Below, piece by piece: positions 1,938 to 30,069 of a stretch of 37,269 nucleotides of DNA; within the stretch, counting starts at the first letter, position 1, and each line of letters opens with the position of its first letter. Origin of the DNA: Acidimicrobiia bacterium (GTDB lineage: Bacteria; Actinomycetota; Acidimicrobiia; Acidimicrobiales; JANYDT01); the NCBI GenBank assembly GCA_043743435.1, contig JAYTWN010000242.1:1-37269 (forward strand). Reading direction: 5' to 3'. Under the pieces are notes generated by a model. It did no database searches. It was not told the DNA's origin and worked only from the letters and a program-made list of their open reading frames with translations. The translations under genes were made by a program, and so were the position numbers.

Positions 1938-3884
1938 ATGCGAAGCCGTCGAAGCAACCAAGTTGTCAAAGCACAATCGCTTGTGCGACGAACCTCAGCC
2001 CTAGCCGGCCTCACCCTCTGCGCTTTAGCGGTACTCGCACCTTTGTCCAGTGCGGCTCAAATCCGAACTCAAGGCGAGCTCCAAGCTTTTGGCGACCGCA
2101 CAAAACGCTTTGAGACCGTCCTCGACGTGCAGGCCAACGGCGACATGATCGTTACGGAAACCATCACCCAAGAATTCCAAGAACCCAACCGCCACGGCAT
2201 CGAACGGTTCATCCCGGAAACCCAAAACATCTCGTCGGATGGAGGGAAAGCAACGTATCGCCAATACCCAATTTCTGACGTCACGGTGGAAGCCGATGCG
2301 AGCACTCCATCACAAATCAGCATGAAACGAACAGGCTCCGACCCTGAAAAAATTCTGCGGATTCGGGTGGGTGACCCCAATGAAATCGTCCGAGGAACCC
2401 ATACGTATACCGTTCGCTACCTGGTCAAGGCCGTCGCCACCCGGTTTGAAAAAGACGAACCCGACAACCCCGCACACGATGAGCTCTACTGGAACGGCAT
2501 TGGGAACTCTTGGCGTCAACCGATCGACGTTGCCAAAGTAACGGTGAAGCTCCCCGCCAACATCACCCGGATTGCCTGTTTCACTGGGTACGTCGGATCC
2601 AAGACCCCGTGTGACGGAACTCCGAGCGGCCAAGAGGCAACCTTCAACCTGTCCTCGTTGCCCGCAGGCGATGCCATCACGGTGGTCGTTGGCAGTGCTC
2701 TGAACTCCTTGACAATCAACCCGTTGATTGTCGTTGAGGACAGCGGGCTCGTGAAACTACTGAAAAGTTCGTACCTGGGCATCCTGGCCTTTTTGGGTGG
2801 GGCTATCGCCGTCGTGCCCAAACTGTCCCGTGCTGGACGAGACCGTGCCTTTGCAGGATTGGCCCTTTCTGCATCCCAAGGGGAAGAAGGAACGGCAGTT
2901 GATAGACCCATCCGACGAGCCGACAAACGGGAAGGGCCCGTGGAGTTTGGTCCCCCCGAAAACGCCCGACCAGCGTTGCTCGGCGCGCTGGAAAAGCTGG
3001 GCGGAACGAAGGAACACATGACGGCGACGATCATCGACTTGGCTTCTCGTGGCTATTTGATTATCAATGAGGAACCAGACACCTGGCGTCTTCACCGCAC
3101 CCCTCTTGGCACATCTCTTGGCACATCTGCGCTAGCGCAAAGCCCCGGTAATGGCAACGGCATGGTTCCTAGCTTCAACAGCCGCAAAAACCCACCGCTC
3201 CACGACTACGAAATTCAGCTGCTGAACGATCTGTTTGCGTCGGGTGCAGAGGTTCGGTTGTCGGATCTCGACGACACGTTCGCTTCCAAGTACGCAGCCT
3301 TCGTGGGCCGGATTACCCAGGAAATCACCACCCATAAATGGACTACCGGCAATCCCACCACGGTTAAAGCTAAAGCCGCTGCCCCAGGGGGTTTGGCCAT
3401 CGTGCTCGGCATTGCGTCGCTGTTCCTGCACGTCGGACACGGTATCGCTGTTGGCTTGTTCGCGCTCGGCGCTCTTATCCTGGTGGTCGCCCAAGCTGCC
3501 CCGGCCAGGTCAAGTGCTGGGTCGGCCATGTTGGCCCGCACACAGGGTTTCCGGAGATTCCTTCTCGCTGGAGAACCACGACTTGAACACGCCGAACGGG
3601 CAAAGCTCTTCATTGATTTCCTGCCCTACGCCGTTGGATTCGGTATCACCAAACAATGGTCAAAACGCTTCGAAGACCTCACCTCGCTTCCTGAGACGGG
3701 CTGGTACCGAGGGCACGGACCAATGAGTCCGGTGATTTTCGGTGGTCGAATCAATGATTTTGACCGCAAAGCTTCAACGAACCTGACCAGCACCCCAACC
3801 CCAACCAACTCTGGCGGAGGCTCCGGATTTTCGGGCGGTTCCAGCGGAGGCGGCGGAGGTGGTGGTGGCGGCGGAAGCTGGTAG
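1938..3884 (+). CDS. DUF2207-family membrane protein (signal peptide, extracellular domain, C-terminal TM segments, poly-Gly tail)
   Basis: N-terminal signal-like segment RRTSALAGLTLCALAVLAPLSSAAQ. DUF2207-like N-domain (IVTETITQEF..HGIERFIP). Hydrophobic segments (LGILAFLGGAIAVV; GGLAIVLGIASLFLHVGHGIAVGLFALGALILVVA). Characteristic tail SGGGSGFSGGSSGGGGGGGGGGSW. Confidence 0.72.
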   Translation: MRSRRSNQVVKAQSLVRRTSALAGLTLCALAVLAPLSSAAQIRTQGELQAFGDRTKRFETVLDVQANGDMIVTETITQEFQEPNRHGIERFIPETQNISSDGGKATYRQYPISDVTVEADASTPSQISMKRTGSDPEKILRIRVGDPNEIVRGTHTYTVRYLVKAVATRFEKDEPDNPAHDELYWNGIGNSWRQPIDVAKVTVKLPANITRIACFTGYVGSKTPCDGTPSGQEATFNLSSLPAGDAITVVVGSALNSLTINPLIVVEDSGLVKLLKSSYLGILAFLGGAIAVVPKLSRAGRDRAFAGLALSASQGEEGTAVDRPIRRADKREGPVEFGPPENARPALLGALEKLGGTKEHMTATIIDLASRGYLIINEEPDTWRLHRTPLGTSLGTSALAQSPGNGNGMVPSFNSRKNPPLHDYEIQLLNDLFASGAEVRLSDLDDTFASKYAAFVGRITQEITTHKWTTGNPTTVKAKAAAPGGLAIVLGIASLFLHVGHGIAVGLFALGALILVVAQAAPARSSAGSAMLARTQGFRRFLLAGEPRLEHAERAKLFIDFLPYAVGFGITKQWSKRFEDLTSLPETGWYRGHGPMSPVIFGGRINDFDRKASTNLTSTPTPTNSGGGSGFSGGSSGGGGGGGGGGSW

Positions 3885-4207: not shown

Positions 4208-4579
4208 TTGGCCCCTAGGCCCTATGAAGTAATGGTCATCGTCGATTCGACGCTTGACGATGAAGTTGTTCAGAGCGTTCTGAAACGTACTTCCACCATG
4301 ATCACCACCAAGTTCAACGGCACCCTTGGGCGCACCGAGAAGTGGGGCCGGCGCAAGCTTGCCTACGAGATCGAAAAGAAGACCGACGGCTATTACACGC
4401 TGATCGAATTCACCGCAGAGCCAACCGAGATCAAAGAACTTGATCGTCAGTTGTTCTTGGCCGATGAAATTCTTCGCCACAAGATCATCCTGGTTCCAGC
4501 CGCTGGCGCCGGACGCTCACTCGACCAACCACCACCATTGGATGAAATTGCATCCGGTGGCGGTCGCGATCGCGACTGA
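4208..4579 (+). CDS. rpsF: 30S ribosomal protein S6
   Basis: RPYEVMVIVDSTLDDE...GRTEKWGRRKLAYEIEKKTDGYYTLIEF...ADEILRHKII. The likely start is TTG 4208, 7 nt after GGGAGG (4195-4200). The longer ORF from 4139 is probably not used. Confidence 0.93.
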   Translation: MAPRPYEVMVIVDSTLDDEVVQSVLKRTSTMITTKFNGTLGRTEKWGRRKLAYEIEKKTDGYYTLIEFTAEPTEIKELDRQLFLADEILRHKIILVPAAGAGRSLDQPPPLDEIASGGGRDRD

Positions 4580-4587
4580 GCCCAGCC

Positions 4588-5079
4588 ATGTCGGGAAACA
4601 ACATCACCATCATGGGTAACGTAACCCGTGACCCGGAGCTGCGTTTCACCGCAAGCGGTCAAGCAACCGCCACCTTTGGCATTGCTGTAAACCGCCGCTG
4701 GCAGAACCGCCAAACCAACGAATGGGAAGAAGCCGTCTCATTTTTCAACGTCGTCACCTGGCGTGAACTTGCGGAAAATGCTGCAGAGTCACTCCACAAA
4801 GGCACTCGCGTGCTGGTGTCTGGTCGCCTAGAGCAACGCTCATGGGAAACCGCCGACGGAGAAAAAAAGACCGTCGTCGACATTGTTGCTGATGAAGTTG
4901 GACCAAGCCTGCGTTATGCGTCGGCCACGGTTACCCGCAATGAGCGTCGCACTGGCGATGCACCCTCCGATGGAGGCCCCCGCAATAGCGGACCAAGTAC
5001 CCAAAGCCGCCCAGCCTCTGCCCCCGCTGCCAATGCGGAACCGGCCGGTGGATACGAATACGATGAGGAGCCCTTCTAA
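4588..5079 (+). CDS. ssb: Single-stranded DNA-binding protein
   Basis: OB-fold N-terminus [35 protein letters not shown]...[14 protein letters not shown] Gly/Pro-rich linker follows, then the acidic C-terminal tip YEYDEEPF. Confidence 0.95.
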
Positions 5080-5498
5080 TGGGACGTAACAACGACAGAG
5101 ACCGCGGTACGAATACCAATTCCAAGCGGATCATCAAAGATGACAAGCGTCGTCCAGGTAAAAAGAAGGTCATGATCGTCCGTGAGGGCGCATTCGTTGA
5201 CTACAAAGACATCAACATGCTTCGCAAGTTCATGTCTGATCGCGGCAAGATCCGTAGCCGTCGCGTTTCTGGCCTTTCGGTCCAGATGCAGCGTGACATT
5301 GCTGTGGCCATCAAAACAGCCCGTGAACTAGCGCTGTTGCCTTATGCAACTCGCACGGTAAGCGAAGGTCGTGGCCCCCGTGGTGGTCGTGGTCCACGTC
5401 GCGACAAGGATGCTCCAGCGAATGGCGCCGATGTCAACGAAGACACAGCAGCCGATGCCGGTGACGACGATGATGACGCTGAAGAAGTGGAGGCGTAA
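5079..5498 (+). CDS. rpsR: 30S ribosomal protein S18 with an unusually long C-terminal extension
   Basis: Core [49 protein letters not shown]. The ATG overlaps the ssb stop (TAATG). About 49 extra residues follow the conserved LLPY end. Confidence 0.93.
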
Positions 5499-14781: not shown

Positions 14782-16755
14782 ATGGCTGATAGTTCTGGTG
14801 CACCGGTTTCCTCGTCACTGCCGCGCCCCGATGCGCCTTGGGTGATGCGGACCTATTCGGGGCATTCCACGGCCACCGCTTCGAATGAGTTGTATCGCAC
14901 CAACCTTTCGAAGGGGCAAACGGGTCTATCGATTGCGTTTGACCTGCCGACACAAACCGGTTACGACCCTGATGCCCCCCAAGCTCGCGGTGAGGTCGGC
15001 AAAGTTGGGGTGCCCGTTGCCCATCTTGGTCATATGCGTACGTTGCTTGATGGCATTCCGGTTGATCAGATGAACACATCGATGACGATCAATGCCCCGG
15101 CGGCTTGGATGCTGGGCCTCTACATTGCCAACGCGGAAACCGAGGGTGTCGACCCTCGCGGACTGGCCGGCACAACCCAGAACGACATTGTCAAGGAGTA
15201 CCTGTCACGCGGTACGTACATCTATCCGCCAGTGCCTTCACGTCGGCTGATTGTGGACATGATTTCCTACACGGTGCAGCACCTGCCGAAGTGGAATCCG
15301 ATTAACGTGTGTTCTTATCATTTGCAGGAGGCCGGTGCTACTCCTACGCAAGAGTTGGCCTACGCGTTGGCGACGGCTATCGACGTGCTCGATGCGGTGC
15401 GCGATTCGGGTCAGGTGAAGCCCGAGGATTTTGGAGATGTGGTTGCCCGCATCTCGTTCTTCGTAAATGCGGGCATACGCTTCGTTGAAGAGATGTGCAA
15501 GATGCGGGCCTTCGGACAAATGTGGGAACGCATTTGTATCGAGCGCTACGGAGTTACTGATCCCAAGCAACGTCGGTTCCGTTATGGACTGCAAGTGAAT
15601 TCGCTTGGCCTAACCGAGGCACAGCCGGAGAACAATGTGCAACGCATTGTGTTGGAGATGCTTGGGGTGACTCTGTCTCGTGATGCTCGTGCCCGGGCGT
15701 TGCAGTTGCCTGCATGGAATGAAGCGTTGGGTTTGCCGCGTCCGTGGGATCAGCAGTGGTCGTTGCGAATGCAGCAGGTGTTGGCGTTTGAAACCGATCT
15801 CCTCGAATACCCCGACCTCTTCGAAGGCTCAGTGGTGGTTGAGGCCAAAGTCAACGAGATGATTGCCGCCGCCAGCGCCGAACTTGATGACGTACTGGCC
15901 CTCGGCGGGGCCTTCGAAGCAATAGGTGAACTGAAGGCTCGTTTGGTACGTTCACATACCGAACGAACCCGTAGAATTGAGAGCGGTGACCTGGCCGTGA
16001 TTGGAGTGAACCGATTTACTGAATCGGCTCCTTCCCCACTCGGTGGTGCCGACAATATTTTGACCGTAGACTCAGCCGTTGAAGCCGCCATGATCGCCGA
16101 TGTGCAAGCGTGGCGTGCCAATCGCGATTCAGTCGCGGCGGCCGCGGCTCTCGAAGCGGTGCGAGTTGCTGCCCGTGGCACAGAGAACATTATGGTCTCC
16201 ACGATTGCCGCGGCCCATGCAGGCGTCACAACGGGCGAATGGGCCGGGGCTTTGCGTGAAATCTTCGGCGAGTTTCGTGCTCCAACTGGCGTTGGAGGAG
16301 TAGGGGGTCATTCCAGTGCTGGCCTTTCAGCGATCGCCGCCCGTAATAAAGTCCGTGTTGGTGGGCCGCCGAAGTTGTTAGTAGCCAAGCCGGGTCTCGA
16401 CGGGCATTCCAACGGTGCCGAACAAATCGCAGTCGCTGCGCGTGACGCTGGGATGGAAGTTATCTACCAAGGCATTCGCCTTTCCCCAGAACAAATTGCT
16501 GCCGCGGCGCGCGACGAGGATCCACATGTCATCGGGCTCTCAGTACTCTCCGGTTCACATATGGAACTGGTTCCCGAAGTGATGCGTTGTTTAGCGGCTG
16601 TTGGTGTGGACGCGCCAGTGATCATTGGCGGCATTATTCCCGAAGCGGATCGCGCGGTGTTGATGGCCGCCGGTGTTGCTGCGGTCTACACCCCAAAGGA
16701 TTACGACATCACCCGCATCATGGAAGAAATAAGCGCGCTTGCTGATTATCGATAA
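14782..16755 (+). CDS. meaA: Fused B12-dependent acyl-CoA mutase (catalytic TIM-barrel plus C-terminal cobalamin-binding domain), MeaA/ethylmalonyl-CoA-mutase-like
   Basis: PWVMRTYSGHSTATASNELYRTNLSKGQTGLSIAFDLPTQTGYDPD...GEVGKVGVPVAHLGHMR...MNTSMTINAPAAW. The C-terminal B12 motif is KPGLDGHSNGAEQIAV...VIGLSVLSGSH (DxHxxG...SxL...GG). The R-T-Y-x-G-H-S N-terminal signature is what I remember for the MeaA/Ecm clade, as opposed to R-Q-Y-A-G-F in MCM/ICM. Substrate assignment is therefore tentative. Confidence 0.85.
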   Translation: MADSSGAPVSSSLPRPDAPWVMRTYSGHSTATASNELYRTNLSKGQTGLSIAFDLPTQTGYDPDAPQARGEVGKVGVPVAHLGHMRTLLDGIPVDQMNTSMTINAPAAWMLGLYIANAETEGVDPRGLAGTTQNDIVKEYLSRGTYIYPPVPSRRLIVDMISYTVQHLPKWNPINVCSYHLQEAGATPTQELAYALATAIDVLDAVRDSGQVKPEDFGDVVARISFFVNAGIRFVEEMCKMRAFGQMWERICIERYGVTDPKQRRFRYGLQVNSLGLTEAQPENNVQRIVLEMLGVTLSRDARARALQLPAWNEALGLPRPWDQQWSLRMQQVLAFETDLLEYPDLFEGSVVVEAKVNEMIAAASAELDDVLALGGAFEAIGELKARLVRSHTERTRRIESGDLAVIGVNRFTESAPSPLGGADNILTVDSAVEAAMIADVQAWRANRDSVAAAAALEAVRVAARGTENIMVSTIAAAHAGVTTGEWAGALREIFGEFRAPTGVGGVGGHSSAGLSAIAARNKVRVGGPPKLLVAKPGLDGHSNGAEQIAVAARDAGMEVIYQGIRLSPEQIAAAARDEDPHVIGLSVLSGSHMELVPEVMRCLAAVGVDAPVIIGGIIPEADRAVLMAAGVAAVYTPKDYDITRIMEEISALADYR

Positions 16756-17776: not shown

Positions 17777-18094
17777 TTAGATCCCGAGGATTGATCGGAG
17801 ACCTTCGTCGATGTCGTCTATCAGTATTTTCGGCAGGCGGCCGGCTTGCTTGCCGAGTAACGATCGATCAATCAGTTCAAGGCCAAGGGGGATTGCCACA
17901 GAGTCCTGTGGGAGCCCGCTCGATTTGGCGGGAAGAAAGACATTGCCAGCCAGGCCCGCTCGGGCGACGTTCGATGTGACGGGCACCACGTGGGTCTGCC
18001 ACACCTTCACACTGAGGACTTCGTCGGAAGACACGACCACGCACGGCCTCCGTTTGTCTAGTTCGATCCAGTACACTGAGCCCCTGATCACCAT
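17777..18094 (-). CDS. Type II toxin, PemK/MazF-family endoribonuclease
   Basis: MVIRGSVYWIELDKRRPCVVVSSDEV...THVVPVTSNV...LPQDSVAIPLGLELIDRSLLGKQAGRLP is the typical MazF/PemK pattern: G-x-[IV]-Y-W-[IV], RP-x-VV[VI]S and VVP[IV]TS. Length 105 aa. Confidence 0.85.
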   Translation of the reverse strand: MVIRGSVYWIELDKRRPCVVVSSDEVLSVKVWQTHVVPVTSNVARAGLAGNVFLPAKSSGLPQDSVAIPLGLELIDRSLLGKQAGRLPKILIDDIDEGLRSILGI

Positions 18095-18321
18095 GGCGCA
18101 GAACGCTCCATACGTGTCATTGCTTTCAGTGATGCAGCCTTGCTTGGAGGTTTAGTCCCCGCTAGTTCAGCGTCAGCCAACAGTTGCTGGGCGAGGCTCA
18201 TCCCCGGATGGGTGGCGGCGTGATGTCGGAGCTGATTGGCAACCCAGGTGGAGAATGGAACATCCAGGCTGTCAATGATCGGCACGACGTCGTCGGGAAC
18301 GCTGATGGTTTTGTTCGGCAC
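18088..18321 (-). CDS. Cognate antitoxin (RHH/MazE-like N-terminus, disordered C-terminus)
   Basis: This 77-aa ORF lies immediately upstream of the toxin and overlaps it by 7 nt (ATGGTGA). The N-terminus KTISVPDDVVPIIDSL..PFSTWVANQLRHH resembles ribbon-helix-helix antitoxins. Confidence 0.7.
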   Translation of the reverse strand: MPNKTISVPDDVVPIIDSLDVPFSTWVANQLRHHAATHPGMSLAQQLLADAELAGTKPPSKAASLKAMTRMERSAPW

Positions 18322-18511: not shown

Positions 18512-20059
18512 CTAGCTAATCTCGGGAATTGGATGGGGTGGGGGTGGGCCCACGTAGCGGGCACTTGGTCGGATGATCTTTGAATCGGCCGCCTGCTCAA
18601 GGATGTTGGCTGACCATCCAATCACTCGGCTCGAGGCAAACGTGGGTGTAAACATGGCTGGGGAAAGGCCAACAGTTGCCATCACTACGCCTGCGAAGAA
18701 CTCGACGTTGGTGTACAACTCCCGTCCAGGTTTGAGCTCGGCGAGAAGTTCCACGATTCTGCGCTCCACCTTCACGCCGAGCTCAGCGAGTGGACCTCCG
18801 AGGGAAATTGCGATGTCGCGCAACATCAACGACCTGGGATCATCGGTTCGGTAGACAGGATGACCAAATCCCATGATCCGCTCCCCATTTTCAATCTTCG
18901 GTCGCACCACTTCGTCGATTCGATCAACGGTTCCGATCTCATCGAGAAGGTCGAGTGCTCGGCTTGGCGCTCCGCCGTGCAAAGGTCCCGACAGAGAGGC
19001 GACACCACCTACAACAGCTGCAGCGCAATCGGCCCCCGTCGACGCGATCACGCGGGCGGTAAATGTTGACGCGTTGAATCCATGATCGATCGTGGACACG
19101 AGGTACTGCTCAATGGCTCGAACATGTTGCGGTGACCCCTCCACGCCGTTCATCATCCATAAATAGTTTTGTGCATACGTCAAGCCGGGTTTTGGATCAA
19201 TGGGTGTTTGAGCAATCCCAAGTCGGTACAGTGTGCAAAGGATGACCGGAGTTACCGCACAAAGTCTGAGGAGGTTCTGGCGGCGCTCAGCTGGGCTTGC
19301 ATCGAGCACAGGCCGCATTCGATCATGTGCGCCGATCATGGACAGCGCGCTGCGAAGGCCGTCGAGCGGACCAACGCCGTTCACTAGCGATGGCAGCAGG
19401 TGCGCGATTGGTTCAGGAATGGTGCGCATGGCGTTCACTTCTTCAGTAAATGCGTTTCGTTCTGCGAGGGTGGTTGGCAGCGAACCATCGATCATTAAAC
19501 GCCAAACGTCTTCGAGACTTCTGTTCCGTGCGAGGTCGGTAGCTGAGTATTGGCGATAGTGATAGAAGCCTTCGCGTCCGCGAACGTCACCCACTTCGGT
19601 TTCTGAAACGACAACACCTTTAAGGCCACGGGGGACCTCGGGAACAGTGTCCGATGGTGAAGTGATGTTTGCAATTCGCATCAAGTCTCGAAGCGAGATG
19701 ACGCCGACAACTTCACCACCATGTACGACAGGGGCGTGTCGATAACCGCGTTCGCGCATTGTCCTCAGCGCGGTCGACCCATCCTCTTTGGCGTCAATGA
19801 CATCGACAGGGCTACTCATAACTTCGCTCAAGGGCGAATCAATACTCCCGTCTTTGGCAAGCTGGCGAAGGACGTCGCGTTCGGTAACGATGCCGAGAAG
19901 TGTTCGCCCTTCGACAATCAATACCGAGCCAACCCGTTGATCATGCATTCGGCGTATTGCCGTGGAAAGAGGCTCATCCGGTGATGCAGTAACCGCGGGA
20001 TGAGTCGCAATCGAATCGACAGAGAGGAGGGCGGTGGCGGTGGCGGTGGCTGTAGTCAT
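18512..20059 (-). CDS. CBS-pair domain fused to a citrate synthase / 2-methylcitrate synthase-family enzyme
   Basis: Two CBS motifs occupy the N-terminal 150 aa or so (RVGSVLIVEGRTLLGIVTERDVLRQL; YRHAPVVHGGEVVGVISLRDLMRI). The citrate-synthase core follows: GLKGVVVSETEVG...FYHYRQYS, GPLHGGAPS, GFGHPVYRTDDPR, LYTNVEFFAG, SRVIGWSANILEQ and IIRPSARYVGP. The start is ATG 20059 or ATG 20098. Confidence 0.88.
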   Translation of the reverse strand: MTTATATATALLSVDSIATHPAVTASPDEPLSTAIRRMHDQRVGSVLIVEGRTLLGIVTERDVLRQLAKDGSIDSPLSEVMSSPVDVIDAKEDGSTALRTMRERGYRHAPVVHGGEVVGVISLRDLMRIANITSPSDTVPEVPRGLKGVVVSETEVGDVRGREGFYHYRQYSATDLARNRSLEDVWRLMIDGSLPTTLAERNAFTEEVNAMRTIPEPIAHLLPSLVNGVGPLDGLRSALSMIGAHDRMRPVLDASPAERRQNLLRLCAVTPVILCTLYRLGIAQTPIDPKPGLTYAQNYLWMMNGVEGSPQHVRAIEQYLVSTIDHGFNASTFTARVIASTGADCAAAVVGGVASLSGPLHGGAPSRALDLLDEIGTVDRIDEVVRPKIENGERIMGFGHPVYRTDDPRSLMLRDIAISLGGPLAELGVKVERRIVELLAELKPGRELYTNVEFFAGVVMATVGLSPAMFTPTFASSRVIGWSANILEQAADSKIIRPSARYVGPPPPHPIPEIS

Positions 20060-20096
20060 ACAACTGATAGTGCTCTCGTGGCTTGTCACAGTCAAC

Positions 20097-20128
20097 ATTG
20101 ATTTTGATCAACGTTGATTTTGATCAAC
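20097..20128. promoter_or_regulatory. Two tandem 16-bp palindromic sites ((A/G)TTGATTTTGATCAAC) in the divergent promoter region of the two citrate-synthase paralogs
   Basis: ATTGATTTTGATCAAC (20097-20112) is followed directly by GTTGATTTTGATCAAC (20113-20128). Each holds the inverted repeat GTTGAT-N4-ATCAAC and the perfect 8-bp palindrome TTGATCAA. A further GTCAAC half-site lies at 20091-20096. Confidence 0.6.
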
Positions 20129-20149
20129 TATATGTGTACGCTTCAGTTT

Positions 20150-21373
20150 ATGACTCGCATGTCCACGGCCCAGGCGGCGAAGCGGCTCGGTGTGAAGCCG
20201 TCGACGATTTATGCGTATGTGAGCCGCGGAATACTGACCAGCGTTCAGTCGCTCGACGGTCGAAATAGCATGTTTTCCACTTCAGAGGTTGAACAGCTAG
20301 CGAGGCGCGGAAAACCTCGTCAATCGAGTCGTTCCCATGCGCTGGATTTCGCAATAGACACCTCGATTACGTCAATCACGCAACAGGAATTGCGCTACCG
20401 CGGGTACAACGCGATAGCGCTCGCCGCAACGGCGACTTTTGAACAAGTCGCCGATCTCTTGCTCATTGGTACATTGCCGACGCATACGTCTTGGCCGGTT
20501 TGCACAGTACCGGTTCCTGCGTCGCGGTCGATCTTTGATCACGTTGGATTCGCAACGATTCTCGCTGGGGCGACGGATCCTTTTCGAAGCGATCTCGCTC
20601 CAAGTTCCGTGGCCCAAACGTCGCGCACCCTTATAGCGGCAATCGTTGATTCACTCCCCACCCAAGGTGAGGGACGTACGCCACGTTTGCAGATTGGTGA
20701 CGAGTCGTATCTCTCTACGATCGCTGGTCGTCTTTGGACGAAACTGTCTCCTCGACGACCCACTTCGGGGATGATGTCGGTGCTCAATGCGGCCCTGGTG
20801 CTCCTAGCCGATCATGAGCTCGCGGTATCAACGGTCGCTGCCCGTGTGACTGCCTCGACACACGCCGATCCCTATGCGGTCGTGCGGGCAGGAACGGCTG
20901 CGATGAGCGGTCCCCTACATGGGGGTGCAAGCCGCTCGGCTAGGGAGATGCTTGACAATGCGCTGGCCGAGAGAGGCCGAACTGCGGCGAGTATCGACCG
21001 CGCCGCAAGCGAAGCGCTTTCCCGTTTTGGTGCATACCCAGGCTTCGGCCACAAGGTGTACAAAAGCGGTGATCCCCGAGCTGAGAAATTGCTGGCGATG
21101 TTGCGTGAAGTCGCAGGCGGCACTTCGGAGATGAGTGTTGTCGATGGAATAGTAAGTGCAATTGGGAAACGCCGCGACATACAGCCGAACATGGATCTCG
21201 CGCTGGCAGCGCTTGGTGTCGTGGCCAATTTCCCAGAAGATGCGGGTGAGTTCATTTTCTCGATCGCTCGTGTGGCCGGTTGGTGTGCACATGCGATCGA
21301 GGAGTACGCAGAAGAGCCACTCCGCTTCCGAGCCCGCGCAATCTTTGTCGACCCCGCGGGTCCGCAAATGTAG
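20150..21373 (+). CDS. MerR/excisionase-type HTH DNA-binding domain fused to a citrate synthase-family domain
   Basis: N-terminus MSTAQAAKRLGVKPSTIYAYVSRGILTS...FSTSEVEQLARRG (HTH_17-like). The citrate-synthase fold follows: ITQQELRYRGYNAIALAATATFEQVADLLLIGTLP, GPLHGGAS, YPGFGHKVYKSGDPR, QPNMDLALAAL and ARVAGWCAHAIEEY. The start is ATG 20150 or 20159. The ORF opens at TTG 20114, inside the operator repeats. Confidence 0.85.
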   Translation: MTRMSTAQAAKRLGVKPSTIYAYVSRGILTSVQSLDGRNSMFSTSEVEQLARRGKPRQSSRSHALDFAIDTSITSITQQELRYRGYNAIALAATATFEQVADLLLIGTLPTHTSWPVCTVPVPASRSIFDHVGFATILAGATDPFRSDLAPSSVAQTSRTLIAAIVDSLPTQGEGRTPRLQIGDESYLSTIAGRLWTKLSPRRPTSGMMSVLNAALVLLADHELAVSTVAARVTASTHADPYAVVRAGTAAMSGPLHGGASRSAREMLDNALAERGRTAASIDRAASEALSRFGAYPGFGHKVYKSGDPRAEKLLAMLREVAGGTSEMSVVDGIVSAIGKRRDIQPNMDLALAALGVVANFPEDAGEFIFSIARVAGWCAHAIEEYAEEPLRFRARAIFVDPAGPQM

Positions 21374-21547: not shown

Positions 21548-22279
21548 TTAGTGGAAATCGTGACCGTGTTTGAGCATGTGGGCGGCGCCGTGGGGTTCGT
21601 TGAGGGCGGAGTTTTTGCCGAAGATGCTTTCTTTTTGTGCGCCGTAGGCCTTTCGGTTTGCGCCGAGCGGTGCCAGTTCTGATGCTCGTCTGCGTGCGGC
21701 ATCGAGGAGTTCATGGGCGCTGGTGATTTGGCTAACGATTCCCGCAGCAAGTGCATCCGGTCCAGCCCATCGGCGAGCAAGTTGGACGGTTTCAAAGAAG
21801 GTATGTGCAGATAGTTTGTGGCGAAACAGGGCGAGTTCGGGCCGGGGAATGACCATTCCTAGTTGCATTTCGTTGGCGCATACAAAGCCTCGGTCGGCCC
21901 GCATGATGCGAACGTCATGGCACATTGCAGTCATCAGCCCAGCACCAAACGCGTGACCGTTGATTGCTGCCACGGTTGGCACGGGCAACGTTATGATCCG
22001 TCCCATGAGGGCCATGAACTCGTCACCAAAAACAGATCGATCACCACCGCTAGGCGAAGCTTCGACTCCGTCGGTGGATGCGGAGATCCAATCCAGGTCG
22101 AGACCGTTAGAAAAGAACTTCTCGTTGCTCGATCGAGTGATGAGCGCAGCGGGTCCGGTCGAGGCCTCTACCTCGTCGAGCGCGTTCGCATAGGCGCGCA
22201 CGAAGGTGGTGTTCCATCGGTTTTCACCGTCGTTCATGGTGAGGATGAACAGCTCACCGTCTCGTTCTAGATCGATCAT
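21548..22279 (-). CDS. Enoyl-CoA hydratase/isomerase (crotonase) family protein
   Basis: FILTMNDGENRWN...ALITRSSNEKFFSNGLDLDW...PVPTVAAINGHAFGAGLMTAMCHDVRIM. ATG 22279 is preceded by AAGGAA. The longer ORF to 22357 starts inside a tandem repeat and is unlikely. Confidence 0.85.
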   Translation of the reverse strand: MIDLERDGELFILTMNDGENRWNTTFVRAYANALDEVEASTGPAALITRSSNEKFFSNGLDLDWISASTDGVEASPSGGDRSVFGDEFMALMGRIITLPVPTVAAINGHAFGAGLMTAMCHDVRIMRADRGFVCANEMQLGMVIPRPELALFRHKLSAHTFFETVQLARRWAGPDALAAGIVSQITSAHELLDAARRRASELAPLGANRKAYGAQKESIFGKNSALNEPHGAAHMLKHGHDFH

Positions 22280-22345
22280 GGTTTCCTTATTGGTGTGTGC
22301 CGAGCCGATGATTGCATCGGGTGAGTCATTGAGGTTCGGCCTAAT

Positions 22346-22401
22346 AGGGTGCGTCATTTAGGGTGCGTCATCCAGGGTGAGTCATTCAAGGTAGGTCCTG
22401 G
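22346..22401. repeat. Four tandem 14-bp units (AGGGTG(C/A)GTCAT-NN, the last degenerate) plus one dispersed copy at 22318-22331
   Basis: Direct reading gives AGGGTGCGTCATTT, AGGGTGCGTCATCC, AGGGTGAGTCATTC, AAGGTAGGTCCTGG. The dispersed copy is CGGGTGAGTCATTG, 15 nt upstream. The array lies between the two crotonase genes. Confidence 0.85.
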
Positions 22402-22454: not shown

Positions 22455-23195
22455 TCAACTTACAAACGTGTTGAGACGCGCGCCCGCACCGGACATTGGG
22501 TATTCGGTGGCGAATTCGTAGGCGAGCCCATCGTTGAGGCCATTGTTTTCCGCAGCCCTGTACAAATCTTTGTATGCGCGCTGAGAAGCTGGTGAACCTT
22601 CAGTGAGCATGACAATCAACGCATCGGCTCGTGCATCAAGTTCTGCCAGCGGGCACGATTCGGCGGCCATGCCCCAAACGGCAGCATCGGATCCCAGGAA
22701 CACACGAGCGGTGTGGCTCAACCATCGGGCCCGTGTGATGCCCACGGCAGCTACCAACCGCTGGCTCATGCCCCAAGTTGGACGCAAGCCCCATTTGGCG
22801 TGGGTGTCGCCCATTTTGGCTTCGTCGGCCACGATCATGATGTCGCAGGCGAGGGCGATTTCCAATGCCCCGGTGAAGCAGGCACCGTTGACTTTGGCCA
22901 CTGTGACTTTGTTCATCGTCGACAAAAGCTCGGCAGCTCTTCGGGCAGGAGTGTTGAGCAAATCAGAGACATCGCCGCCATCGATTCCAGCTGCCGCAAT
23001 CGCTTTGAGATCTACACCCGCGCAGAAGGCACGCCCAACACCGGTCAGAACAACTACCGTCACGGCAGTGTCACCGGCTGCGCCTTCTAGTGCGACGACG
23101 AGTTGGCTCAGTAGCTCCGGTGTAAGTGCATTGAGTGCTTCGGGGCGGTTAAGTTTAATGGTGCAAACGTTTCTTGCGGTCTCGGTCAGAATCAT
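22455..23195 (-). CDS. Enoyl-CoA hydratase/isomerase (crotonase) family protein
   Basis: VCTIKLNRPEALNALTPEL...VVVLTGVGRAFCAGVDLKAI...KVTVAKVNGACFTGALEIALACDIMIV. Confidence 0.88.
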   Translation of the reverse strand: MILTETARNVCTIKLNRPEALNALTPELLSQLVVALEGAAGDTAVTVVVLTGVGRAFCAGVDLKAIAAAGIDGGDVSDLLNTPARRAAELLSTMNKVTVAKVNGACFTGALEIALACDIMIVADEAKMGDTHAKWGLRPTWGMSQRLVAAVGITRARWLSHTARVFLGSDAAVWGMAAESCPLAELDARADALIVMLTEGSPASQRAYKDLYRAAENNGLNDGLAYEFATEYPMSGAGARLNTFVS

Positions 23196-24287: not shown

Positions 24288-25289
24288 TTACCTAACGTCG
24301 AGGATGAGGCGAATGTCGGCGCCGAGTTGGGTTACGGAGTGGAACGAGCCCCGCCACAGGTCGGTCATGGTGGGGGCTCCGGGGCCGGCAAAAAGGGGTT
24401 GACCGTCATCACCACCCAGCAGGGCAGGTGCTATGTAGACGTAGTATTGATCGACCAGACCGGCTCGATGAAACGATCCAGCCACGGTGGCTCCGCCTTC
24501 AACCAACAGTTGGAGATGACCTCTGCGGCCGAGCTCGTCGAGCACGTCGGTGAGGTCGCCTTGAACTTCGAGACAGGGTTGGACCCTTGCAGATTCAGCG
24601 ACACTTCCAAGCACATAGCGAGCAGGATCACGACCTTCGACCATTCGGACCGTGAGGGAAGGATCGTCGGCGCGTACGGTCCCGGCTCCCACCAAGATGG
24701 CATCGCATTCGGCACGCAATTGGTGAACGTCGCGTCGGGCTTCTTCGCCGGTAATCCATACCGACGTTCCATCGGGTGCAGCGATCCGGCCGTCAAGAGT
24801 CATGGCCAACTTCAACACCACGAAGGGTCGACCGGTCCGCCGTTGATGCAAATACGGTTTGAGTTGTCTCTCAACCAGGGACGCGCCAACGCCTTCGACC
24901 ACTTCGATACCGGCATCACGCAGTCGAGCAATACCCTGCCCGGCTACCTTCACATCGGGATCGCGTACAGCCACAACCACACGGGAAACACCTGCTTCGA
25001 TGATCGCGTCGGCGCAGGGCGGTGTGCGTCCGTAATGGGAGCACGGTTCCAACGTAACGAAAAGGGTGGCACCGCGTGCGAGGTCCCCCGCTTCACGTAA
25101 CGCCATCACTTCAGCGTGGGGGCCGCCGGGAGGTTGGGTGCGTCCGGTGGCGATCACTCGACGTTGCGCATCGAGCAACACGGCCCCAACCCAAGGATTT
25201 GGTGCGGTCCACAATCGGGACTTCGTGGCGACTTCAATGGCCAACTCCATCGCTGCTTGGTCATCGAGCGGACCGGCTACCAGGCTCAT
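24288..25289 (-). CDS. ribD: Bifunctional diaminohydroxyphosphoribosylaminopyrimidine deaminase / 5-amino-6-(5-phosphoribosylamino)uracil reductase
   Basis: Deaminase zinc motifs HAEVMALREAG and TLEPCSHYGRTPPCADAI. Reductase half: FVVLKLAMTLDGRIAAPDG...ILVGAGTVRADDPSLTVR...LLVEGGATVAGSF. Its stop abuts the LLM stop with 0 nt between them. Confidence 0.93.
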   Translation of the reverse strand: MSLVAGPLDDQAAMELAIEVATKSRLWTAPNPWVGAVLLDAQRRVIATGRTQPPGGPHAEVMALREAGDLARGATLFVTLEPCSHYGRTPPCADAIIEAGVSRVVVAVRDPDVKVAGQGIARLRDAGIEVVEGVGASLVERQLKPYLHQRRTGRPFVVLKLAMTLDGRIAAPDGTSVWITGEEARRDVHQLRAECDAILVGAGTVRADDPSLTVRMVEGRDPARYVLGSVAESARVQPCLEVQGDLTDVLDELGRRGHLQLLVEGGATVAGSFHRAGLVDQYYVYIAPALLGGDDGQPLFAGPGAPTMTDLWRGSFHSVTQLGADIRLILDVR

Positions 25290-25328: not shown

Positions 25329-27065
25329 TTACTGAATTTCGTTCGCCAAGTATTCGGCAGTGAGGCGGCCGTCGAGATTCCAGCGGCCCACCGTGCCGTT
25401 CCAACCTGCGGTGAACAGTGTTGCTTCGCCAACGGCAACGGCAGGCACACCCGGTTTTCCATGCAAGCGAAGCGGCGTCCATTCCCAACCACGGAAACCG
25501 CGATGCCATGCGAGAGCGGTGCCATCGTAGGAACCGGTGAGAATGAGGTTGCCGTCGCTGGTTACGGCGATGGCTTTCACCGATTTACGGTGGCCGTAAC
25601 CGAGGGTTTCGATGAGTGCACCCGTAGAGGCATCCCAAATACGCACCCGCAAATCCCGCGACGCCGAGACCACAATCCCGGCTTCGTCGGCACAGGCCAC
25701 AGCGTTGACCAACACCAGATCATCCGCGTTGGCTCGCCAAGCCAGTCGCTCACCATTCCAAGCGCTCAGCGATCCGTCCGACGAACCAGCGACGAGCAGA
25801 TTGGCCGATGCACTCCACGCCAAAGATTTGATGGGCCCATGGTGTGCAGTGAACGTGGAGGTGCAGGTTCCATCGATCTGCCAGGTGCGGACACAACCGT
25901 CGTAGCCGCCGCTATAGAACGTGTCCCCACTTGGGTTCCAAGCAATGGAGTTGACCGGGCCACCGTCGGCCGCGCGGGTCAGAACCGCTGTTCCGCCACC
26001 AGGTTGTAGCGGCGTGACGTGGACTCCGCCGCGATAGTCGCCACTAGCCACGCAGCAGTTATTCGGGGATATGGCAACGGTGTTTACGATGGTGCCGTGT
26101 TGGGTGAGAACCTCTGCGCGCAGAACATCTACCACCCGGCCGTCGTCGCGACCAACGAGCAGCCGACCATTTGATGACGCAATCGAGTTGATGCCATAGG
26201 TGAGCTCTAAGCCACGTCCCGTTGGCGGATGTTCAATGGGTCCAGCACCGAAACTGCCAATCACGATGCCCCTATTGGTGAAGCCACCGGCACGTTCCCA
26301 CTGAAACGCTTGACGATAGGATTCGATCAGTGACCACGACATGCAATCATAAGCACGCATAGTGGCATCATAGGAACCAATCAGTATCCGCGCGCCGGTA
26401 GCATCGAAACGAATAAACCGAACCGCTGCCGTTGCTTCGATAAGTTCACGTACCAATTCGCCAGTAGTTGGATCCCAAACCCGGGCGATCCCGTCGTCGC
26501 AACCGGTCACGATCACGCTGCCATCGGGTGACCAATCCAGTGCCTCGGGATCACCGGGATGGTGAAGCACAAACAGTTGATCCCCGGTGGCTATTTCCCA
26601 GATACGGGCCGTGGAATCCTCGGCCACCGTGGCCACGCGGGTACCGCTGGGATCGAACGCCACCGCAAACACACCGCTTTCATGTCCGTCGAGGGCAACA
26701 CTGGCTGAGCCGTCGAGTGGCCAAAGACGAATGGTGGTGTCGAGGTGATCCATAACGCAGGCCAACTGCGAGGCATCGGGTGACCAGCGAACGGCATTCA
26801 CATCGTCGCCATGGGGACCAAAGACATCGGTTCGAGCACCGTTGTTCATATTCAACACAAAGGCATTGCTATCGGCCACGGCCACGGCCACACGAGTACC
26901 GGTGGGGTCTATGCGCACGTCGTTCACCAGGTCATCGAAGTCGGCAAACCAGAGCTCGGTACCGTCGGGATTCCAGGCGACAACTCGACCATCGTATCCA
27001 CCGGTGACGCGCAGATCAGTGGCGAGATGATGATCGACACAGGTAATGGGAGAGCGATGAGGCAT
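25329..27065 (-). CDS. WD40 / beta-propeller repeat protein (about 13-14 repeats, no recognisable extra domain)
   Basis: Repeats of about 40 aa recur, such as GHESGVFAVAFDPSGTRVATVAEDSTARIWEIATG, DWSPDGSVIVTGCDDGIARVWDPTTG, SLAWSASANLLVAGSSDGSLSAWN, and AIAVTSDGNLILTGSYDGTALAWH. The start is ATG 27065 or GTG 27125. Confidence 0.85.
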   Translation of the reverse strand: MPHRSPITCVDHHLATDLRVTGGYDGRVVAWNPDGTELWFADFDDLVNDVRIDPTGTRVAVAVADSNAFVLNMNNGARTDVFGPHGDDVNAVRWSPDASQLACVMDHLDTTIRLWPLDGSASVALDGHESGVFAVAFDPSGTRVATVAEDSTARIWEIATGDQLFVLHHPGDPEALDWSPDGSVIVTGCDDGIARVWDPTTGELVRELIEATAAVRFIRFDATGARILIGSYDATMRAYDCMSWSLIESYRQAFQWERAGGFTNRGIVIGSFGAGPIEHPPTGRGLELTYGINSIASSNGRLLVGRDDGRVVDVLRAEVLTQHGTIVNTVAISPNNCCVASGDYRGGVHVTPLQPGGGTAVLTRAADGGPVNSIAWNPSGDTFYSGGYDGCVRTWQIDGTCTSTFTAHHGPIKSLAWSASANLLVAGSSDGSLSAWNGERLAWRANADDLVLVNAVACADEAGIVVSASRDLRVRIWDASTGALIETLGYGHRKSVKAIAVTSDGNLILTGSYDGTALAWHRGFRGWEWTPLRLHGKPGVPAVAVGEATLFTAGWNGTVGRWNLDGRLTAEYLANEIQ

Positions 27066-27189
27066 ACAAATGGCTTTCGTTAGCGGTGGTGCTGGCGGAA
27101 AAGAGGTGTTCTTGGAGGCAACCAATTCAATTGCAACGGGTGGATCGAAACAGCAAGGATTTGGAACCGGCGAAGGTCAACGCTGTGGC

Positions 27190-29388: not shown

Positions 29389-30069
29389 TTGAGCGTGTCA
29401 AACCTCAATGCAGCCACCATTCGCAATCGAGTGCGTATTCCTCTGCGATTCGCCGACGGGTATGAGGCCACAGCCGACGTGTTCAGCTTCCACGGATTGG
29501 TTGACGGGAAGGAACATCTGGCCCTGGGATTTGGTTTGGCTGATGTGTCCGGCGATCCCGCCGCTGACCAGTCGCCCCCAGTTGCTGCGCAAGACGTTCC
29601 GTTGGTGCGAATTCATTCCGAGTGCCTAACCGGTGACGTGTTTGGTTCGCTGCGCTGCGATTGCGGTCCGCAGCTACGAGAAGCGGTCGGATTGATTTCG
29701 AAGGACGGCGGATACGTGTTGTATCTTCGCCAAGAGGGCCGGGGGATTGGCCTTTACACAAAGCTCGATGCGTATCGATTACAAGATCGTGGAATGGACA
29801 CCTTCGAGGCCAACCGTGCTCTGGGTCGCAATGATGACGAACGCGAATACACCGTTGCTGCGCAAATGCTACGTGCGCTTGGTGTTACCAGTGTCGAGTT
29901 GCTTTCCAACAATCCCGACAAGTTTGAACAGATGACTGAACTTGGCATCACCATCACCCGCAAAGTCCCAACCGGTGTGCACGTGTCGGAAGAAAATCAC
30001 GGCTACCTCACGGCAAAAATCGACCAACACGCGCACACTATCGATCTACCCAGTCGGATCGACGACTAG
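29389..30069 (+). CDS. ribA: GTP cyclohydrolase II (monofunctional, not fused to RibB)
   Basis: VRIHSECLTGDVFGSLRCDCGPQL (zinc Cys triad), YLRQEGRGIGLYTKLDAYRLQDRGMDTFEAN, and LLSNNPDK. TTG 29389 lies 8 nt after GAGGAGGG. The TAG stop at 30067-30069 lies in the MITE C junction. Confidence 0.92.
   Translation: MSVSNLNAATIRNRVRIPLRFADGYEATADVFSFHGLVDGKEHLALGFGLADVSGDPAADQSPPVAAQDVPLVRIHSECLTGDVFGSLRCDCGPQLREAVGLISKDGGYVLYLRQEGRGIGLYTKLDAYRLQDRGMDTFEANRALGRNDDEREYTVAAQMLRALGVTSVELLSNNPDKFEQMTELGITITRKVPTGVHVSEENHGYLTAKIDQHAHTIDLPSRIDD

Follow-up and report, generated by a model that had tools for sequence, protein, structure and literature searches.

A contig from an Acidimicrobiia bacterium (assembly GCA_043743435.1, contig JAYTWN010000242.1) carries two divergent citrate synthase genes separated by a 90-bp intergenic gap, in which two tandem palindromes lie end to end. 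These palindromes are probably operators of the adjacent gene product, a fusion of a helix-turn-helix (HTH) domain to a citrate synthase, and through them the fusion would control its own gene and that of its partner, a citrate synthase with a pair of CBS domains. The window, as we call the whole stretch of DNA analysed, covers 37,269 bp (positions 1 to 37,269 of the contig). As judged by genome comparison, the palindromic motif is a strong phylogenetic footprint conserved across Actinomycetota. The features concerned are as follows.

18512-20059, minus strand: gene for a citrate synthase with a CBS pair, 515 amino acids (PF00571 twice; PF00285, 344 bits)
20091-20096: left-flank half-site GTCAAC, directly upstream of unit 1
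20097-20112: candidate operator unit 1, ATTGAT-TTTG-ATCAAC (ATTGATTTTGATCAAC), inverted half-sites with a 4-nt spacer
20113-20128: candidate operator unit 2, GTTGAT-TTTG-ATCAAC (GTTGATTTTGATCAAC), starting 16 bp after unit 1
20150-21373, plus strand: gene for the HTH_17/MerR and citrate synthase fusion, 407 amino acids (PF12728, 31.1 bits; PF00285, 204 bits)

The two units are identical at 15 of 16 positions, and a repeat search recovered them as a 16-nt direct repeat with 94% identity and overlapping palindromes. Across the whole window, the pattern RTTGAT-N4-ATCAAC with at most one mismatch gave four strand-hits, against 0.40 expected, all confined to 20097-20128, and none of 100 dinucleotide-preserving shuffles of the window reached that number. 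The symmetry extends beyond the units. A 20-bp palindrome, ACATTGAT-TTTG-ATCAACGT, covers 20095-20114 and fits AYRTTGAT-N4-ATCAAYRT with 0 mismatches, while a second 20-bp element at 20111-20130 fits it with two; a palindromic ACGT junction is common to both. Elsewhere in the window, the extended pattern has a single further match, with two mismatches, and pattern searches found no other convincing site of operator type in the 37 kb, so that no regulon can be defined locally. An earlier note, made from the sequence of the window, had described the tandem repeat with inverted half-sites between two citrate synthase genes, one with CBS domains and one with an HTH domain, a GTCAAC immediately upstream, and the most AT-rich stretch of the locus. 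The sequence and the repeat search agree with this description, as does Pfam for both genes, and the GC content of 0.38 at 20050-20149 is the lowest 100-bp value from 18 to 22 kb (neighbouring 100-bp windows, 0.46-0.67). The note had also singled out an embedded perfect palindrome, TTGATCAA. This is indeed present in the window, but it is tied to the TTTG spacer found there and is not kept in relatives, whose spacers include TTTC, TATC, TTCC and TGA; on this comparison it is incidental, a by-product of the window's spacer.

A scan of species-representative genomes (GTDB) retrieved at least 596 matching stretches in Actinomycetota and relatives. We analysed 80 loci, including ones from Acidimicrobiia, Streptomyces, Nonomuraea, Actinoplanes, Amycolatopsis, Kribbella and Microthrix. 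The fusion protein itself has thousands of homologues that share its architecture, the named ones coming from Iamia and Ilumatobacteraceae. A first hint of conserved upstream DNA came from an alignment of 20 homologues, in which over-extended N termini translate as 'SIVNVDY' or 'LILINY'. The pattern AAYRTTGA-N3-6-TCAA was present between -250 and +10 of the fusion gene in 70 of the 80 loci. The upstream sequence, 20.8 kb in all, contained 84 matches and the 534 kb of flanking sequence 2, which makes the pattern ~860-fold denser upstream. The consensus upstream of the fusion gene is tGTCAAY-RTTGAT-N3/4-RTCAAY-RT. Its spacer is N3 (15-bp period) in 55 instances, including all Streptomyces (GTCAATATTGATTGAATCAAT), and N4 (16-bp period) in 14, the group to which the window's clade belongs. 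When only TTGA...TCAA was anchored and the flanks were left unforced, AAYR on the left mirrored YRT on the right, as expected of a symmetric dimer. The symmetric element is therefore AYRTTGAT-N3/4-ATCAAYRT, ~19-20 bp long. In the same unforced columns, the left flank bears an additional, asymmetric conservation of TGTC (TGTCAA).

The number of units varies even among close relatives, defined by proteins 60-83% identical, which share the form GTCAAY-(RTTGAT-N4-RTCAAY)n. We counted one unit in L083, L086 and L087, one partly degenerate unit in L088, two in the window, L081 and L085, and three, with different spacers, in L082. Between these loci the half-sites are kept, while the spacers (TTTG, TTTC, TTCC, TATC, TACC, TTTA) and the remaining intergenic sequence diverge. 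Given the range from one to three units, the tandem copy in the window represents an array expansion, differing between lineages, of what is elsewhere a single conserved operator. Distant clades have near-perfect tandem arrays too (e.g. L025, L026, L054 and L075); only units with 0-1 mismatch were counted, since chaining at up to 2 mismatches over-calls two-unit arrays by chance.

The divergent neighbour of the fusion gene is a citrate synthase in ~66 of the 80 loci, with CBS domains in Acidimicrobiia and none in Streptomyces. This partner has Glu at the catalytic Asp position in all 64 partner genes compared (residue 453 in the window, 'NVEF'), a position that we take to be that of the catalytic D375 of pig citrate synthase. 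In ~13 loci (Nonomuraea, Spirillospora, Asanoa and Streptosporangiales), the place of the citrate synthase is taken by an HMGL-like, homocitrate-synthase-like gene (PF00682 plus PF22617), whose best NCBIfam match, the nifV homocitrate synthase, lies far below the cut-off. Loci with this partner include L013, L018, L032, L050, L067, L069, L076 and L079, together with L104, L120, L149, L155 and L164 from metagenomes. The exchange looks like a non-orthologous swap between two families of acyl-CoA:2-oxoacid condensing enzymes. The motif is retained at these loci, ~35 bp upstream of the HMGL-like gene. Where the pair is split by an inserted gene (L044, L160, L079, L102 and L109), a motif stands before the fusion gene and another before the displaced partner. 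A copy at each separated promoter is what one would predict if both promoters require this cis-element and the fusion protein uses it.

We also searched metagenomes in the reverse direction, without regard to genes, using GTCAAYRTTGAT-N{3,4}-RTCAAY, and obtained 120 contigs. In contigs with a GC content of at least 0.60, the site lay within 400-500 bp of the start of a fusion gene, a citrate synthase partner or an HMGL-like partner in 41 out of 50, although this pattern includes the left-flank half-site and so favours the architecture of the fusion locus. Below 0.60, where an AT-rich pattern is expected by chance, no member of the gene family was found beside the site in any of the 70 contigs. 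In most of the nine high-GC exceptions a contig end is no more than 150 bp away, and one exception (L102) has the fusion gene at a distance of 1.7 kb. Among sites with no HTH-citrate synthase in view, two are beside a gene for a YafY-like HTH regulator (L113, at ~1352, and L205, at ~877), and in L156 at least six GTCAAC/ATCAAC half-sites cluster at the contig end (~3780-3870). These motifs may be further targets or chance matches.

The earlier note had proposed that a dimeric HTH protein, with the fusion as the obvious candidate, binds the palindromes, regulating itself and its paralog. Among the outcomes that would speak otherwise, it had named a motif missing from orthologous loci and a motif of random genome-wide frequency with no bias towards promoters. 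The comparative evidence supports its proposal: the motif recurs at orthologous loci in 70 of 80 genomes, its distribution is far from random and biased towards promoters, both upstream of fusion genes and in the metagenome contigs, and it follows the fusion gene, being kept with the HMGL-like partner and doubled where the pair is split. The HTH domain that the note had assumed is confidently predicted as a winged HTH of MerR/BldC type at the N terminus.

The fusion protein comprises this winged HTH (residues 1-56), a basic segment R-R-G-(K/R)-P-R (52-57), a linker modelled at low confidence (57-64) and the citrate synthase fold. Its N-terminal domain exceeds the cut-offs of PF12728 (27 bits) and PF13411 (22.7 bits, cut-off 21.6), and scores 26.3 bits with TIGR01764, under the cut-off of 28.8. 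AlphaFold models had mean predicted local distance difference test (pLDDT) scores of 86 (full-length protein) and 83 (isolated domain), with ~90 over residues 1-53. The modelled HTH (E3-5, H6-13, H17-25, a wing formed by E31-33/E40-43, and H44-53) has a beta-alpha-alpha-wing-alpha order. Top Foldseek matches of the isolated domain were DNA-bound HiNmlR, BldC, RacA, SoxR and MtaN, as well as a mycobacteriophage Xis (Pukovnik), with template modelling (TM) scores of 0.6-0.8 that are normalised to small targets. Sequence-level hints from the PDB were restricted to SoxR and BldC (E ~0.04-0.09), the BldC match being full-length but weak (E = 0.085), and the PDB sequence search found no solved structure with the HTH-citrate synthase architecture. 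In 20 diverse homologues, the recognition helix T-x-Y-A-Y-V-S-R-G and the residues R53-G54-x-P56-R57 are invariant. The invariant helix is matched by the invariant TTGA core of the half-site, and the basic, AT-hook-like segment R53-G54-x-P56-R57 could reach the AT-rich spacer.

The citrate synthase domain of the fusion gave NCBIfam equivalog scores that are all far below cut-offs. H222, H257, H301, D349, R310 and R374, presumably the catalytic and substrate-binding residues (pig H238/H274/H320/D375/R329/R401), are conserved in 77-79 of 79 homologues, and the fusion keeps the Asp (77 out of 79). This conservation makes it very probable that the domain still binds oxaloacetate or acyl-CoA, and it may also be catalytic.

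The start of the fusion gene at 20150 agrees with the N termini of its homologues in the alignment. There is also an in-frame ATG at 20132-20134, 18 nt upstream of the conserved start, and the public gene call (P0001, 413 amino acids) uses 20132; such a start would sit 3 nt past the operator, and the homologues favour 20150. From these starts, pattern parses place a promoter for each gene in the intergenic gap.

20095-20090, minus strand: predicted -35 of the CBS-citrate synthase promoter, TTGACT, overlapping the GTCAAC half-site
20072-20067, minus strand: predicted -10 of the same promoter, CACTAT, 17 nt after the -35 and 7 nt before the ATG at 20059
20114-20119, plus strand: predicted -35 of the HTH-citrate synthase promoter, TTGATT, inside unit 2
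20137-20142, plus strand: predicted -10 of the same promoter, TACGCT (TANNNT type), 17 nt after the -35 and 7 nt before the ATG at 20150

For the partner gene, both the window and 6 of 7 close relatives can be parsed as TTGAC(T/G), 17-18 nt, nAnnnT, 6-7 nt, ATG. For the fusion gene, TTGATT with a spacer of 16-19 nt fits 4 of the 7; L082, L086 and L087 have a TANNNT 6 nt ahead of the start, as do L081 and L083 by eye. These parses suggest that both mRNAs are leaderless or nearly so, and that the operator array contains or adjoins both -35 hexamers. The 'extra' GTCAAC half-site probably also serves as the partner's -35 box (TTGACT). This would account for the asymmetric conservation of TGTC, where the Streptomyces sequence is a perfect TTGACA. 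The 'Position to TSS' (transcription start site) values in PMC12323332 fit start-codon distances in comparable loci, and we did not use them as evidence of transcript starts.

The analyses above show the sequence of the palindromes, their conservation, their exclusive association with this gene family, the HTH fold and the kept catalytic residues; the binder, the promoters, whether control is positive or negative, and the ligand are inferred. Citrate synthases of the fusion's type are obligate dimers, so one dimer would place two HTH domains on RTTGAT and ATCAAY. The half-site centres, 10 bp apart, would lie on one face of the helix, with the dimer held by the citrate synthase body, and the full recognition element would be ~20 bp (AYRTTGAT-N4-ATCAAYRT). 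On the array of the window, two dimers would sit 16 bp apart, ~1.5 helical turns, and thus on roughly opposite faces. The array would overlap the predicted -35 (TTGATT) and spacer of the regulator's own promoter and abut or overlap the predicted -35 (TTGACT) of the partner, so that its occupancy should control both genes. Repression of both genes would be the more likely sign, relieved or reinforced by a substrate or product (oxaloacetate, acyl-CoA or citrate) via the open-to-closed movement of citrate synthase. The partner promoter could instead be activated, unit 1 being centred near -45.5 from both predicted starts.

Several observations weigh against the fusion protein acting on the palindromes in this way. 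About 10 of the 80 loci have no match to the pattern; most of these have degenerate versions by eye, and L064 has none. A scan of 19900-20300 for sigma-70 promoters and terminators returned nothing at threshold, and the promoter elements given above are matches to looser, hand-defined patterns, which TTGA-rich sequence yields easily. The motif of the Streptomyces loci lies between 5 and ~40 nt from the -10 of the fusion gene, and so does not occupy a fixed repressor position at that promoter everywhere. The retention of all catalytic residues means that the fusion may be primarily an enzyme. Finally, both units of the window match TTGAT-N4-ATCAA exactly, half-sites included, and this is the consensus of the FNR box.

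A CRP/FNR regulator encoded elsewhere could accordingly read the units as FNR boxes and set oxygen or redox control of both citrate synthase genes, and genes of the tricarboxylic acid (TCA) cycle are typical targets of oxygen-responsive regulators. We consider this very unlikely. The spacer is N3, not N4, at 55 of the 70 orthologous loci, which argues against FNR, as a CRP/FNR dimer is not known to tolerate N3 spacing. Conservation also reaches the AYR/YRT positions beyond the FNR core, and away from the fusion promoters the inverted repeat is about as frequent as chance predicts (6 strand-hits in 534 kb), unlike a global regulon. The site tracks the HTH-fusion gene through partner swaps. A weaker point is that no CRP/FNR domain was detected among the 30 window open reading frames (ORFs) scanned against Pfam, in these 37 kb of the genome. 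Another unlinked actinobacterial regulator is very improbable too, even if the response regulator MtrA is a concrete candidate: a probe with TTGACTTAACTGTCCA from the orthologous SCO5831-SCO5832 intergenic region of S. coelicolor was shifted by MtrA in an electrophoretic mobility shift assay, and expression of citA3/citA4 was higher in an mtrA mutant (PMC12323332). The site in question is the conserved flank beside the palindrome in Streptomyces (TTGATTCGACTGTCCA), rather than the palindrome itself, and it is not conserved in the window. Moreover, the MtrA consensus, GTAACC-N5-GTAACC (PMC12323332), is a direct repeat, unlike the inverted repeat described here, and a global regulator leaves the co-occurrence with the HTH-fusion gene unexplained.

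The motif might also consist of bare, back-to-back -35 hexamers of divergent promoters, TTGAC leftward and TTGAT rightward, with no dedicated regulator. GTCAAY|RTTGAT does give TTGACn when read on the minus strand and TTGATn when read on the plus strand, in a geometry that fits the window and most close relatives, and the TGTC conservation of the left flank suits TTGACA. Such hexamers would explain the left-hand palindrome. This explanation seems to us highly implausible, given that it accounts neither for a third half-site, RTCAAYRT, which is just as conserved and keeps a fixed spacing of 3-4 nt, nor for arrays of two or three full units. In Streptomyces, the variable distance to the -10 of the fusion gene means that the motif is not the -35 of that promoter, and -35 elements are not normally conserved so strictly across a phylum. 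Least probable of all, to the point of being nearly negligible, is a functionless AT-rich palindrome duplicated by chance or slippage, or an element that acts as an RNA hairpin. The copies are adjacent and 15/16 identical, and the region can fold as a hairpin. However, the shuffles never reproduced the repeat, and the element is conserved in relatives despite diverged spacers. An RNA element was considered and rejected, as 19800-20400 had no Rfam match and the fold of 20085-20149 was no better than that of shuffles (z = -1.09); the region also lies upstream of both predicted transcription starts.

The remainder of the window is ordinary chromosomal DNA, with genes including panB, SSB, asd, aspartokinase, methylmalonyl-CoA mutase, a MazF-type toxin, two enoyl-CoA hydratases, ribD and ribA. 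The PemK/MazF-type toxin ORF (PF02452; 17777-18094, minus strand) is preceded by an overlapping ORF of 77 amino acids with no Pfam match (18088-18321, minus strand), and the two probably form a type II toxin-antitoxin pair, located immediately downstream of the gene for the CBS-citrate synthase. Within the latter gene, the hexamer GGCGGT occurs four times at 20030-20053, which gives the protein an N-terminal Thr-Ala repeat (TTATATATA). Two enoyl-CoA hydratase paralogs (21548-22357 and 22455-23195, both on the minus strand) are convergent with the fusion gene, and a methylmalonyl-CoA mutase gene lies upstream (14782-16755, plus strand). In L082, the closest long relative, an enoyl-CoA hydratase gene (4277-5080) also follows the fusion gene. 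Such acyl-CoA gene neighbours may hint that the citrate synthase pair acts on substrates of the propionyl-CoA type rather than on acetyl-CoA. Farther along, a WD40 beta-propeller repeat protein of 598 amino acids (25329-27125, minus strand) is encoded between ribD (24288-25289) and the gene for GTP cyclohydrolase II (29389-30069).

As a kind, the proposed system is a classical one: a one-component regulator that controls its own gene through a palindromic operator at a divergent promoter. The citrate synthase module and the operator appear undescribed. Full-text searches of the literature gave no description of an HTH-citrate synthase fusion as a regulator, nor of the palindrome; SCO5831 and SCO5832 are named there only as 'putative citrate synthases' (PMC12323332, PMC9739823). 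If the fusion does act on the palindromes, the motif would define the operator and the regulon core of an uncharacterised regulator family, which is represented in at least 596 genome stretches and includes the model pair SCO5831/SCO5832 of S. coelicolor. Citrate synthase would then join the short list of enzyme folds that serve as the sensor or effector module of a transcription factor. A 20-bp site and a purifiable protein give a testable handle on how actinomycetes control 'extra' citrate synthases, which sit at the branch between the TCA cycle and secondary metabolism derived from acetyl-CoA or propionyl-CoA, and, should the ligand be identified, the site could be used as a promoter part that responds to a metabolite. 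A bolder idea, which we put forward tentatively and with more doubt than conviction, is that these fusions are phylum-wide bifunctional 'trigger' citrate synthases. They would be catalytically competent, and substrate-driven domain closure would gate DNA binding, reading the flux of oxaloacetate and acyl-CoA and adjusting a second synthase, with one to three operator units tuning cooperativity. The second synthase would be a CitA-like citrate synthase in which Glu replaces the catalytic Asp; some lineages would have a homocitrate-synthase-like enzyme (possibly Re-citrate synthase-like) instead.

Among known systems, the N-terminal 56 residues of the fusion resemble the winged HTH of the MerR/BldC family in both profile and modelled fold. 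Classical MerR proteins continue with a C-terminal antiparallel coiled-coil dimerisation helix and a small effector domain, whereas residues 65-407 of the fusion are modelled as a citrate synthase domain (PF00285). The classical MerR dyad is centred in an over-long -35/-10 spacer of 19-20 bp; the window has a predicted spacer of 17 nt and relatives have ones of 16-19 nt, with the dyad overlapping the predicted -35 and the upstream half of the spacer. Enzyme-transcription factor fusions, or 'trigger enzymes', include PutA, BirA, NadR and proteins of the MocR/GabR type. The present system is like them in carrying a DNA-binding domain on an enzyme fold, in its divergent promoter beside a metabolically related gene and in a palindromic operator common to both promoters, and it is unlike them in that its enzyme module is a citrate synthase. 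With the FNR box it shares the core and, in the window, the N4 spacing, but the orthologues mostly have N3, the motif is restricted to the promoters of one gene family and the HTH is of a different class. BldC binds 9-bp direct repeats, AATTNNNN(C), in a head-to-tail manner (PMC5859096). In contrast to that stand-alone winged HTH of ~70 amino acids, the fusion bears an enzyme of 340 amino acids, and its sites are inverted repeats, TTGAT-N3/4-ATCAA, with a 15/16-bp period. The closest counterpart among named genes is SCO5831/SCO5832 (citA3/citA4) of S. coelicolor, for which published work concerns MtrA binding to the neighbouring sequence rather than the palindrome or the HTH domain (PMC12323332). 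The arrangement there is the same, with a plain citrate synthase gene divergent from the HTH fusion; Streptomyces loci differ from the window in having the intergenic sequence GTCAATATTGATTGAATCAAT with N3 spacing, usually a single unit and a partner that lacks the CBS pair.

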